A stretch of 64,000 bases of DNA, taken from positions 217,942-281,941 of the forward strand of contig JBAYGS010000001.1 in NCBI GenBank assembly GCA_041666545.1. Reading direction: 5' to 3'. Source of the DNA: Minisyncoccota bacterium. GTDB lineage: Bacteria; Patescibacteriota; Minisyncoccia; Phycocordibacterales; JBAYGS01. Shown here piece after piece: positions 5,121 through 7,199 of this stretch (position 1 is the first letter of the stretch; each line of letters opens with the position of its first letter). The notes below the pieces were generated by a model that saw only the letters and a list, made by a program, of their open reading frames with translations, was not told the DNA's origin and searched no databases. A program made the translations under genes and the position numbers.

Positions 5121-5681
5121 ATGGAGACTAAATCAAAATTTGTCGCGACCATTCCGGAGCCAAAGTTGGCCAGACTTTTATTTGCCGACACCCGACTGGC
5201 CATGCTTTGGCTCGTTATCCGACTCTATGTTGGTTATGAATGGCTAATGGCCGGAATTTCAAAACTTAATTCTCCGGCTTGGTTAGGCGAACAGGCTGGC
5301 ACCGCCCTCAAAGGATTTCTGGCAGGAGCCCTACAAAAAACCGTAGGCGAGCACCCTGATGTTGCCGGCTGGTATGCGAGCTTCATTCAAAATTTCGTAC
5401 TGAATCACCCAATCGTTTTTTCCAATCTGGTAGTTTATGGCGAAATCGCGGTTGGTCTGGGATTGATTTTGGGTTTGTTTACCGGCATTGCCGCCTTCTT
5501 CGGCAGTTTTATGAACCTCAACTATCTTTTGGCTGGCACCGTGAGCACCAACCCTGTTCTGGGCATTTTGCAGTTATTTTTGATTCTAGCTTGGCGTATT
5601 GCCGGCTGGTACGGACTAGACCGTTTCGCTTTGCCAAAGCTTGGGACACCCTGGAAGCACGGCGAGATGTTTGAGAAGTAA
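5121..5681 (+). CDS. DoxX-family membrane protein
   Basis: Four predicted TM segments, DoxX-like spacing (LRLYVGYEWL..G..K). Confidence 0.6.
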   Translation: METKSKFVATIPEPKLARLLFADTRLAMLWLVIRLYVGYEWLMAGISKLNSPAWLGEQAGTALKGFLAGALQKTVGEHPDVAGWYASFIQNFVLNHPIVFSNLVVYGEIAVGLGLILGLFTGIAAFFGSFMNLNYLLAGTVSTNPVLGILQLFLILAWRIAGWYGLDRFALPKLGTPWKHGEMFEK

Positions 5682-5706
5682 ATTTTCGAAAAACTAGGGA
5701 TTAATG

Positions 5707-5734
5707 AAAACCACTAGCACCCGCTAGTGGTTTT
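5707..5734 (+). terminator. intrinsic terminator AAAACCACTAGC..GCTAGTGGTTTT
   Basis: 12-bp stem with flanking A/T tracts (bidirectional-capable). Confidence 0.65.
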
Positions 5735-5797
5735 CATTCTGACTTTTGCAACTCTCAAAAATTTTGCTATTATAAGCCAGCTCTTTGATTTATCACT

Positions 5798-6111
5798 ATG
5801 CCAGATAATAGAAAATACGCAGATCGTCGAGAAGCCTTGATTAAGGCCGTAGCAAAGCGTAGAAAAAAATTAAGCTGCTGGCTATTGAATACAAGGGCGG
5901 AAAATGCCAAGTTTGCGGTTATGAAAGGTATCCGGGAGCATTAGAACTTCATCATCTAGACAAGCGAGACAAAAGTTTCGCAATTGGTGATAAAGGGTAC
6001 ACAAGATCCTGGGAAAAAGTAAAAGCGGAACTAGATAAGTGTGCCTTGCTGTGTGCCAACTGTCACCGAGAAGTCGGAGCGGGCATAACGAAATTAGACA
6101 GCGCAGAGTAA
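5798..6111 (+). pseudogene. HNH endonuclease (~104 aa) interrupted by a -1 frameshift in an A7 tract (either a pseudogene or programmed/transcriptional slippage)
   Basis: Frame 1 ATG 5798..stop 5944 (MPDNRKYADRREALIKAVAKRRKK...); frame -1 continues from the A-run at ~5863 to 6111 with the HNH motif (CQVCGY..LELHHL...CALLCANCH). The frames join at AGAAAAAAATTAAG. Confidence 0.6.
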
Positions 6112-6143
6112 ATTGAAAACCGAATAATAAATGACAATTAAGC

Positions 6144-6425
6144 TCCGGGATAGCTCAGCGGTAGAGCAGTCGCCTGTAGAGTAATGCAGCTTTTTATCGA
6201 AAGGTAAATCGAAAACTTCGGGATAACGGTGGAACCCTACTATTTAAAAATTGAGGGCAATACCGTGGGAACCGAGCACATAAAGTTTATATGCTCGGGC
6301 GCCGTAGAGACTAGATACCGAGGCACCTAAATCCGCAAGGATATGGTGGTGATATAGTCCACGCCATCAGTAATGATGAATTAAGTGTAAGCGATTGGTC
6401 ACTGGTTCGAATCCAGTTCCCGGAG
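6144..6425 (+). tRNA. tRNA-Asn(GUU) interrupted by a group I intron between anticodon-loop positions 35/36; exons 6144-6177 and 6388-6425; no encoded CCA
   Basis: Acceptor stem TCCGGGA/TCCCGGA with U1-A72, G73 discriminator, D-arm GCTC/GAGC, anticodon stem GTCGC/GCGAT, T-arm ACTGG-TTCGAAT-CCAGT. Spliced loop is CUGUUAA (GUU anticodon). Confidence 0.75.
6178..6387 (+). ncRNA. group I self-splicing intron (~210 nt, small IC3-like) within tRNA-Asn
   Basis: 5' splice site after U with an IGS-like GCAG 8 nt into the intron (a CUGU/GCAG P1 with U.G at the splice site); terminal G6387. Core sequence CGCCGUAGAGACUAGAUACCGAGGCACCUAAAUCCGCAAGGAUAUGG resembles the P7/P3/P8 core of Azoarcus/cyanobacterial tRNA introns as I recall them. 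Confidence 0.7.
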
Positions 6426-6441
6426 CTTAGAGGTCATTTAG
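6411..6441 (+). repeat. direct repeat copy 1 = genuine tRNA 3' end (ATCCAGTTCCCGGAGCTTAGAGGTCATTT) followed by hairpin 6443-6466
   Basis: 30-nt block repeated at 6614 and 6818. Confidence 0.8.
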
Positions 6442-6613
6442 CAAACCGCCCGTCTTGGGCGGTTTTGCTTCATCTAAGGTCCGGGAAAGGACGCAAACTG
6501 CTTTGCGTCCGTCTGGATTCGAACGCCGGAGTTGTGTTTTTGTCAGCAGACAAAACCAACGAGGCGGTGCCCAGACAAGGCCGAGCGGCGGCGAGGTTTT
6601 AGTCGCGGGCGAA

Positions 6614-6677
6614 TCCAGTTCCCGGAGCTTAGAGGTCATTTGCAAAAACAGCGTTTCGGCGCTGTTTTTGTTTGACC
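6614..6677 (+). repeat. direct repeat copy 2 of tRNA 3' end + hairpin/T-tract (GCAAAAACAGCGTTTCGGCGCTGTTTTTG)
   Basis: 30-nt identity to 6411-6441; hairpin identical to copy 3. Confidence 0.8.
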
Positions 6678-6817
6678 TCGCTCCGAGGAAGCAAGTGAAC
6701 GATTTCACTTGCGGACTGGATTCGAAGCCCGATTGAGCATTTTTTCAAGCCACAGTGGCGCGGGAAAAATCCAATCGGGGTACTGAAACTGTAAGTTTCG
6801 AAAAACGTACCCGCGGT

Positions 6818-6880
6818 CCAGTTCCCGGAGCTTAGAGGTCATTTGCAAAAACAGCGTTTCGGCGCTGTTTTTGTTTAACC
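6818..6880 (+). repeat. direct repeat copy 3 of tRNA 3' end + same hairpin/T-tract
   Basis: CCAGTTCCCGGAGCTTAGAGGTCATTTGCAAAAACAGCGTTTCGGCGCTGTTTTTG identical to copy 2; degenerate extra copies (CTGGATTCGAA..CCGGAG) at ~6508 and ~6723. Confidence 0.8.
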
Positions 6881-6929: not shown

Positions 6930-7199
6930 ATGAACCTTCACACCGCCGAAGTTTTTGTTAAAGATGTCCTTTTTGAAATGACGGGCTTCAGCGTCGCCCC
7001 TCATTTATGGGGATCAATTCCCCTTTCAGATATTGGCCTGACTCCCGAATCATGCCGAAACTTATCAGTCACGCTGGGTCTTAAACCTGAAGACCTGACT
7101 CCGGCCATGACCCTCGAGGAAACCGCGAAGAAGGTCGAGAAAGACAGTCCACTCGACATGAGGGTTGAAACGGAGCCGATGTGGGCACTTAATTTTTAG
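6930..7199 (+). CDS. hypothetical protein (89 aa)
   Basis: Track ORF followed by clear terminator at 7215-7247; no recognisable domain. Confidence 0.35.
   Translation: MNLHTAEVFVKDVLFEMTGFSVAPHLWGSIPLSDIGLTPESCRNLSVTLGLKPEDLTPAMTLEETAKKVEKDSPLDMRVETEPMWALNF

Follow-up and report, generated by a model that had tools for sequence, protein, structure and literature searches.

A group I intron of the GUN-tRNA family in a Paceibacterota tRNA-Asn(GUU) gene and structured RNAs that share the 3' end of this tRNA

A survey of 95 complete Patescibacteria genomes uncovered 22 intron-bearing tRNA genes, among them 15 for tRNA-Asn(GUU) and 3 for tRNA-Asp(GUC), with the intron located between nucleotides (nt) 35 and 36 (Nakagawa et al., mSystems 2026, PMC13011429; preprint, bioRxiv 10.1101/2025.07.03.662931). 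The Asn introns at 35/36 are the commonest type of tRNA intron in Patescibacteria (15/22), and the type Asn.4Ug was previously listed by tFind (Williams 2020, as cited in PMC13011429). Two of these introns, from GCA_016700035.1 (Asn) and GCA_001029755.1 (Asp), self-spliced in vitro, as verified by sequencing of the ligated exons, whereas a mutant of the terminal intron nucleotide (omega-G to C) stalled (PMC13011429). HNH endonuclease genes were found inside 4 Asn introns (PMC13011429). Here, we analyzed a 64,000-nt stretch of a Paceibacterota genome (assembly GCA_041666545.1, contig JBAYGS010000001.1, positions 217,942 to 281,941; termed the window), in which an earlier note, made from the sequence alone, had claimed a tRNA-Asn(GUU) gene split by a group I intron. 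We found that positions 6144 to 6425 of the window almost certainly correspond to a Paceibacterota tRNA-Asn(GUU) gene in which a 210-nt group I intron of the published family that occupies tRNAs with GUN anticodons (Asn, Asp, and Tyr) separates U35 from U36.

The two exons read UCCGGGA UA GCUC AGCGGUA GAGC A GUCGC CUGU (3' end CCUGU) and UAA GCGAU UGGUC ACUGG UUCGAAU CCAGU UCCCGGA G (Table 1). Once joined, they form a 72-nt tRNA with the anticodon GUU, a U1-A72 pair, and G73, and ARAGORN folded this spliced sequence into a canonical tRNA-Asn(gtt) cloverleaf, which it counted as 73 nt. When introns were allowed, the program also recognized the gene in the genomic sequence, as a tRNA-Asn with i(35,210). 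The coordinates and features of the split gene were as the earlier note had claimed, including the lack of an encoded CCA (CTT lies directly 3' of G73). Among 267 intron-less tRNAs, the top BLAST match of the spliced tRNA was a tRNA-Asn(GTT), with 92% identity over 49 nt, and the exons were 85% identical to the experimentally validated tRNA-Asn of GCA_016700035.1. Pairing between the 5' leader and the 3' trailer lengthens the acceptor stem by about 15 base pairs (bp).

Table 1. Positions in the window of the split tRNA-Asn gene, the parts of its intron, and the surrounding features.
Feature	Position	Strand	Description	Basis
Promoter-like site	5746-5773	+	TTGCAA-16 nt-TATTAT, TG-extended -10; 5' of the HNH open reading frame	Consensus scan; consensus match only
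Frameshifted HNH homing-endonuclease gene	5798-6111	+	ATG 5798, stop 6109-6111; outside the intron	Translations
5' leader	6128-6143	+	Complementary to 3' trailer 6426-6440	Inverted repeat I2, 23 nt, 87% complementary
tRNA-Asn exon 1	6144-6177	+	Acceptor 5' strand UCCGGGA, D arm, anticodon stem 5' strand, C32 U33 G34 U35	ARAGORN and sequence
Group I intron	6178-6387	+	210 nt	RF00028 alignment, helix assignment, covariation over 76 homologues
P1 CUGU/GCAG	6174-6177 / 6186-6189	+	U35.G wobble at the 5' splice junction; guide GCAG 8 nt into the intron	
P2	6193-6198 / 6203-6208	+	L2 GAAA	
P3	6216-6221 / 6318-6323	+		
P4	6226-6231 / 6261-6266	+		
P5	6235-6238 / 6254-6257	+		
P6	6267-6268 / 6302-6303	+		
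P6a	6272-6278 / 6292-6298	+		
P7	6309-6313 / 6355-6359	+	Pseudoknotted with P3	
P8	6324-6327 / 6345-6348 plus 6331-6334 / 6339-6342	+	L8 GCAA	
P9	6365-6369 / 6374-6378	+	L9 GUAA	
omega-G	6387	+	Terminal intron nucleotide	
tRNA-Asn exon 2	6388-6425	+	U36 A37 A38, anticodon stem 3' strand, variable loop, T arm, acceptor 3' strand UCCCGGA, G73 (6425)	ARAGORN and sequence
Terminator-like hairpin and T run	6450-6470	+	3' of the tRNA	
Unit 2, cargo type A	6480-6627	+	Outside the intron	Fold z-score -7.0
Unit 3, cargo type C	6681-6830	+	Same architecture as unit 2	Fold z-score -5.5
89-amino-acid open reading frame	6930-7199	+	Between the RNA array and the amidohydrolase gene; called as a 73-amino-acid gene in the source annotation	

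We assigned the helices of the intron from the Rfam alignment and from homologues. The Rfam model of group I introns (Intron_gpI, RF00028) aligned over its whole length (1-253) with positions 6161 to 6380 (E = 2.7e-7, in a 651-nt search covering 6050-6700), and the motif GUAGAGACUAGAUACCGAGGCACC...CGCAAGG was located at 6305-6340. All assigned helices are paired in the window intron, with the exception of the outermost position of P9 (C-A).

Homologues were collected by scanning one genome per GTDB species for the exact 18-mer CCGTAGAGACTAGATACC, a motif of the intron core. It was present in at least 120 loci/species genomes, almost all labelled as lineages of the Candidate Phyla Radiation (CPR). 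Under the rule that exon 1 ends in UGU and the intron in G, 90 of the at least 120 loci listed resolved as 35/36 insertions (43 Asn, 28 Asp, 18 Tyr, and 1 doubtful His); all 90 end in G, as the rule itself demanded. The scan suggests that the 22 published cases represent only a small part of the intron family and of its Asn, Asp, and Tyr hosts. The position of the family is after G34-U35 of GUN anticodons, and tRNAs with GUN anticodons are those of the queuosine family.

We then aligned with MAFFT the 76 introns of at most 240 nt, i.e., the window intron and 75 homologues (alignment A2). The assigned P1 to P9 helices were paired in 90.0% of the cells, versus 80.5% in shuffled alignments (0/500 as high) and 35 to 47% with slid partners, and pairing is thus far beyond chance. 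P3, P4, P5, P6, P7, and P8 were each 100% paired across the 76 introns and P9 was 85% paired, whereas the low score of P2 was due solely to misregistration by MAFFT. Compensatory changes supported P3 (4 pairs), P4 (AU/UA, 51:25), P5 (GC/CG, 53:21), P8 (3 pairs, with CG/UA at 44:29), P9 (5 pairs), and P6a (3 pairs), while P1, P6, and P7 showed no variation. The U at -1, the omega-G, and a 4-bp P1 with its U.G pair at the junction were invariant in 76/76 introns, in agreement with the splice-site features and the CUGU/GCAG pairing that had been pointed out from the window alone, and the conserved catalytic core claimed at the same time is borne out by the full-length RF00028 match and by the pairing of P3 to P8. 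The window intron retains every invariant column of the alignment. The anatomy of the window intron, its homology, and the covariation of its helices are direct observations, and we regard the covariation, taken together with the retained columns, as strong evidence of a functional fold.

The closest published sequences (Table S3 of PMC13011429) are the introns of GCA_016699995.1 (Tyr, 192 nt) and GCA_030583765.1 (Asn, 205 nt), both 75 to 80% identical to the window intron (global alignment, matches relative to the length of the shorter sequence). Published members have the 18-nt core and the J8/7-P9 stretch in common with the window intron, the core motifs CCGUAGAGACUAGAUACC and GAUAUAGUCCACGCC are also shared, and the window intron is like the Patescibacteria 35/36 introns (PMC13011429) in phylum, host tRNA, insertion site, guide GCAG(C), and size class. 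It is therefore a new member of a published and experimentally tested family and is ordinary for its phylum. The earlier note had considered an Asn host unusual in a CPR-like genome, a view contradicted by the 15/22 published cases and by the 43 Asn hosts among the at least 120 loci listed here. One difference concerns L9 and P5: most Patescibacteria 35/36 introns, like most members of our alignment, combine a GAAA L9 with a P5 of the form CUAAG...UAUG, which resembles the 11-nt tetraloop receptor, whereas the window intron (L9 at 6370-6373) and those of loci L058 and L072 have GUAA with a CCC/GGG P5. Some members with a CCC P5 still carry GAAA. These differences may reflect a swap of tertiary contacts.

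By homology to the two family members that splice accurately in vitro, the window intron would be catalytic, and we propose the following course for its splicing. The end of exon 1 (C32-U35, CUGU) would pair with the guide GCAG to form P1, in which the U35.G wobble would mark the 5' splice site. The P3-P8 core with its P3/P7 pseudoknot, backed by the P4-P6 domain and by the GNRA loops L2, L8, and L9, would bind a guanosine that attacks after U35. The terminal G6387 would then take over the guanosine site, the free 3'-OH of U35 would attack after G6387, and the joined exons would restore the anticodon loop CUGUUAA.

The IC3 introns of Azoarcus tRNA-Ile(CAU) and of cyanobacterial and plastid tRNA-Leu(UAA) would share this catalytic mechanism, and the earlier note had likened the core of the window intron to them and labelled it IC3. 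Movement of an intron of the Azoarcus tRNA-Ile/cyanobacterial tRNA-Leu lineage into tRNA-Asn is compatible with the small size of the window intron (210 nt), with the absence of P7.1/P7.2 between P7 and P3', with the GNRA loops L2 and L9, and with the common stretch GUAGAGACUAGA. The J6/7-P7 stretch behind the likeness to Azoarcus is indeed present, but it is common to IA and IC3 introns. Subgroup covariance models placed nearly all Patescibacteria tRNA introns in IA, including 25 of 28 35/36 introns, and no Patescibacteria tRNA intron in IC (PMC13011429), and the introns thus classified include the closest published relatives of the window intron; in this published classification, the Patescibacteria family is IA and the Azoarcus and cyanobacterial introns are IC3. 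The insertion sites tabulated in the same study are 34/35 (Leu) and 36/37 or 33/34 (others) for the IC3 introns, versus 35/36 in the window. Sequences of J8/7 and P7 differ as well: by eye, J8/7 GAUAUAGUCC and P7 AGACUAG of the window intron match IA-labelled sequences of the supplement, whereas IC3-labelled ones read AGACUYGAC and GARARAGUCC. Global alignment scores of the window intron were 204 to 213 against its close relatives, the Patescibacteria Asn and Tyr introns, versus 108 to 148 against everything else; two IC3-labelled introns scored 108 to 124 and IA1- and IA3-labelled introns scored 111 to 126, and these pairwise scores do not separate IA from IC. Altogether, descent from the IC3 lineage appears unlikely, and so does the IC3 label, which is unconfirmed rather than disproved.

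Several points weigh against our assignment of the locus to a tRNA-Asn(GUU) gene with a family intron at 35/36. The RF00028 match, although full length, scored 35.2 bits, below the gathering score of 50 that serves as the criterion of the curated model, such that the covariance-model check supported the group I assignment by alignment and E value and not by score. P1 is only 4 bp long, with C31 opposite a C, and we found no convincing P10 when we looked for one in the window intron. The intron-less comparison set contains few tRNA-Asn genes, so that the Asn identity by BLAST amounts to one clear match, and the tRNA gene content was read from 64 kb of the genome. Finally, shifting both splice sites by 2 nt keeps the rule of a U at -1 and a G at omega and gives a tRNA-Thr(UGU) with a 33/34 intron. 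Concerning the score, a homologue (L104) is likewise under the RF00028 gathering score, with 45.9 bits, and the authors of the published survey used E < 1e-4 and a second model on account of such scores (PMC13011429).

In the shifted arrangement, both cuts would be made 2 nt further upstream, i.e., 3' of U33 and 3' of G6385, leaving a 7-nt loop, CUUGUAA. Annotation tools often miss Patescibacteria tRNA introns or miscall their hosts as Thr(UGU) with a 33/34 intron, and both ARAGORN and tFind made the Thr call for many homologues (Table 1 of PMC13011429). In our hands, ARAGORN called 33 of the 120 listed loci Thr-tgt; many Asn hosts came out as Thr(tgt) 33/34 and Tyr hosts as Ser(tga). However, the guide GCAG puts a G opposite U35 and not opposite U33, and this U.G pair is the one that does not vary in the 76 aligned introns. 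The tRNA body carries U1-A72 and G73, which we take to fit the tRNA-Asn of organisms using the transamidation route and not a bacterial tRNA-Thr, and its top intron-less match is a tRNA-Asn. In Asp and Tyr tRNAs, the same family also inserts after GU, and a 2-nt shift would there produce incorrect isotypes; moreover, the sequenced spliced product of a homologue showed a 35/36 junction (PMC13011429). A tRNA-Thr(UGU) host is thus hardly credible.

The tRNA-Asn gene might instead be a pseudogene holding a decayed relic of the intron that no longer splices, with a working tRNA-Asn encoded elsewhere in the genome. A short P1, a sub-threshold RF00028 score, and an associated HNH gene that is frameshifted would all agree with such decay. 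In contrast, all invariant columns of the alignment are kept, the helices are paired apart from the single C-A position in P9, and the homing cycle usually ends with a phase in which the homing endonuclease decays while the ribozyme is kept. Moreover, most members of the family have no endonuclease, and intron-bearing and intron-less copies of the same anticodon rarely coexist (PMC13011429). We consider a non-splicing relic very improbable and retain the reading of a tRNA-Asn(GUU) gene with an intron predicted to splice.

The HNH gene lies upstream of the tRNA, and its open reading frame (ORF) is not intact as assembled: the frame breaks at an A7 run (5863-5869), where A8 would restore a protein of 104 amino acids (aa). 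The break may reflect either a true pseudogene or an assembly error. The HNH motif is present, and the repaired protein matched Pfam entry PF01844 (HNH) with 21.5 bits, for a cut-off of 21.4. It aligned over its full length with ORFs located inside the 511- to 557-nt tRNA-Asn introns of loci L019, L082, L097, and L121 (roughly 70% identity by eye). It is orthologous to the endonucleases of these introns and of published ones, such as those of GCA_001029735.1 and GCA_023898525.1, with which it shares the N-terminal motif (R/K)KYADR...AVAKRR(R/K)K...KGGKC and a CxxC...HH...CANCH core. The ORF of HNH-bearing Patescibacteria introns is situated in L1, whereas the window HNH gene is outside the intron. 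In introns of the L019/L082/L097/L121 type, the ORF is placed 3' of the 5' splice site and ahead of the guide, and GCAGC and P2 are part of its final codons (...GITQLPKE...). The ORF of the window, by comparison, ends 32 nt 5' of exon 1, has a 1-nt deletion in the A run, and diverges exactly at the start of the guide (...GITKLDSAE and stop, versus ...GITQLPKE...). Since the ORF is separated from the guide by exon 1, the endonuclease gene has come to lie outside the intron; no exon-1 remnant was found upstream of the HNH gene.

From these alignments, the HNH gene clearly appears to derive from an intron-borne endonuclease and to be the former passenger of the intron. As it is now a frameshifted gene upstream of the tRNA, this copy of the intron is probably no longer mobile. 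In T-even phages, free-standing homing endonucleases adjoin intron-containing genes (collaborative or intron-less homing), and they too are adjacent to, and not inside, a gene with a group I intron. Unlike them, the HNH gene of the window, as read from its sequence, would derive from an intron-borne gene and be inactivated. The displaced and broken gene may offer a snapshot of an intron losing its homing endonuclease.

The locus also illustrates how standard annotation fails on such genes. ARAGORN in default mode reported zero tRNAs across the whole 64-kb window, and an Rfam scan at gathering thresholds reported nothing in it. With both the tRNA and the intron missed by default tools, the genome would be scored as lacking tRNA-Asn. 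The value of the intron is practical; it also extends, by one Paceibacterota member, a family that has proved common among CPR bacteria.

Downstream of the tRNA, the last 17 nt of the tRNA, the trailer, and the terminator are repeated, with copies at 6412, 6614, and 6817 (repeat family D1), and the second and third copies form the end of two further units of about 150 nt (units 2 and 3, Table 1). A unit begins with a 5' strand that can pair with the acceptor 3' strand; next come a hairpin of 9 bp and a CUGGAUUCG/CGAAUCCAG pairing that encloses a two-hairpin cargo. In unit 2, UCCGGGA (6480-6486) pairs with UCCCGGA (6620-6626), hairpin 1 covers 6489-6510 with the loop CUGC, CUGGAUUCG (6513-6521) pairs with CGAAUCCAG (6610-6618), and the cargo, a three-way junction, occupies 6524-6608; its 3' end is identical to that of the tRNA over a span that starts in the T loop, includes G73, and continues for another 15 nt. 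The 3' end and trailer of unit 3 are 98% identical to those of unit 2 over 64 nt, its hairpin 1 is at the same place with a different sequence, and its cargo reads GAAGCCCGAUUGAGC...CCAAUCGGGGUAC... The unit leaders (6474-6479 and 6674-6680) each pair, by inspection, with a different part of the repeated trailer. These leader/trailer pairings could form a double-stranded processing site.

This arrangement recurs in the CPR loci collected for the intron, after intron-bearing Asn, Asp, and Tyr tRNAs as well as after intron-less Thr, Glu, Met, and Trp tRNAs, with up to 3 extra units in tandem after one tRNA and with the same cargo types behind different host tRNAs. The type C cargo, for example, follows a tRNA-Met gene in L095 and is also present in L238, L242, and L291. 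Tandem arrays were seen in L025 (minus strand, oriented 5341-5768), L056, L074, and L238; they include 3 extra units after one tRNA-Asp gene, 2 of which are 100% identical 139-nt repeats, and, in L238, a type A unit directly followed by a type C unit. The tandem organization suggests that units were amplified by unequal recombination between repeated tRNA ends.

When metagenomes were scanned for the core of the type A cargo, as carried by unit 2, at least 120 matches were obtained, roughly 95 of which we judged real by inspection. Among the matches listed, type A units follow tRNAs of nearly every isotype (about 20). In 39 of the 65 strictly filtered cases listed, an exact copy of at least 12 nt (typically 18 to 23) of the unit 3' end was found at a distance of 60 to 120 nt on the upstream side; wherever we inspected it, this copy corresponded to the end of the upstream tRNA, and the block of identity usually stops near the discriminator. 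The 7 nt that follow the 5' strand of the unit T stem are the reverse complement of the T loop of the upstream tRNA in about 27 of 30 registered cases (by eye), including that of a tRNA-Gly with the unusual loop UCCGACU. The unit 5' strand may be either a copy of tRNA 5' strands or the complement of the 3' end, as tRNAs with G.U pairs were few and the register was uncertain.

We aligned 38 type A units (alignment A3), for which RNAalifold predicted a structure with 29 pairs; compensatory changes were seen in 20 of these. Pairing reached 91.7%, versus 72.7% in shuffled alignments (0/500 as high) and 40 to 51% with slid partners, and the covariation score was 0.50 versus 0.16 for shuffled alignments. 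As G.U pairs are more numerous than A.C pairs, the RNA can be assigned to the same strand as the tRNA. We are confident that the unit family, which is widespread in CPR genomes and metagenomes, is a real structured RNA. At E <= 10, Rfam showed no family for the units except weak, chance-like matches; we found no description of them in the literature searched, and in the viral contigs of IMG/VR, matches to the exact cores of the A, B, and C cargoes did not exceed chance.

Scars of integrated elements at attachment (att) sites are an unlikely explanation for the units. The interior is a conserved, covarying RNA, a crossover in the T loop should have left an intact T arm at the right junction but none is present there, no integrase is encoded nearby, and the same cargo is found after tRNAs of about 20 isotypes. 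Our proposal, which we regard as plausible but short of probable, is that the units form an undescribed RNA family of CPR bacteria, in which a copy of the last 17 to 20 nt of the neighboring tRNA (from about position 57 in the T loop to the discriminator) would pair with its complement into a minihelix equivalent to the acceptor/T-stem top half, with a cargo (A, B, C, or others) in place of the T loop. Such RNAs would be matured, and perhaps CCA-tagged or charged, by tRNA enzymes. We infer both their undescribed status and their mimicry of the tRNA top half, and our best guess is that gene conversion or selection would keep each unit matched to the neighboring tRNA. If they represent a true new class, they would connect a modular set of structured RNAs with the tRNA genes of all isotypes in CPR genomes, and these RNAs sharing tRNA ends could matter more than the intron itself.

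Many units, located behind various tRNAs, have CUGC as the loop of hairpin 1, and the first cargo hairpin (6532-6556 in the window) often has the loop CAGCAG, which contains the complement GCAG. A kissing pair between the two loops was considered and dropped, as the two motifs, though frequent, showed no covariation in the examples tabulated by eye.

The window, part of a 341-kb metagenome contig, is a CPR chromosome: its gene content is that of a bacterial chromosome, with rpoC, dnaG, a UvrD/PD-(D/E)XK helicase-nuclease, hisS, def, and fmt, and an amidohydrolase identical to that of the window is assigned to Candidatus Paceibacterota by NCBI. We rejected a phage origin: the sole phage match was the HNH gene (70% identity to HNH genes of Bacillus phages), in a window that contains rpoC, dnaG, def, fmt, and hisS. 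The 89-aa ORF that precedes the amidohydrolase gene had no match in Pfam. The nearest homologues of the amidohydrolase are at most 70% identical; their contigs share just the amidohydrolase-DFP-flavoprotein block with the window and have no tRNA upstream of it. The sole candidate promoter that our consensus scan found for the array formed by the HNH gene, the tRNA-Asn gene, and the downstream RNAs is the TG-extended site located 5' of the HNH ORF.

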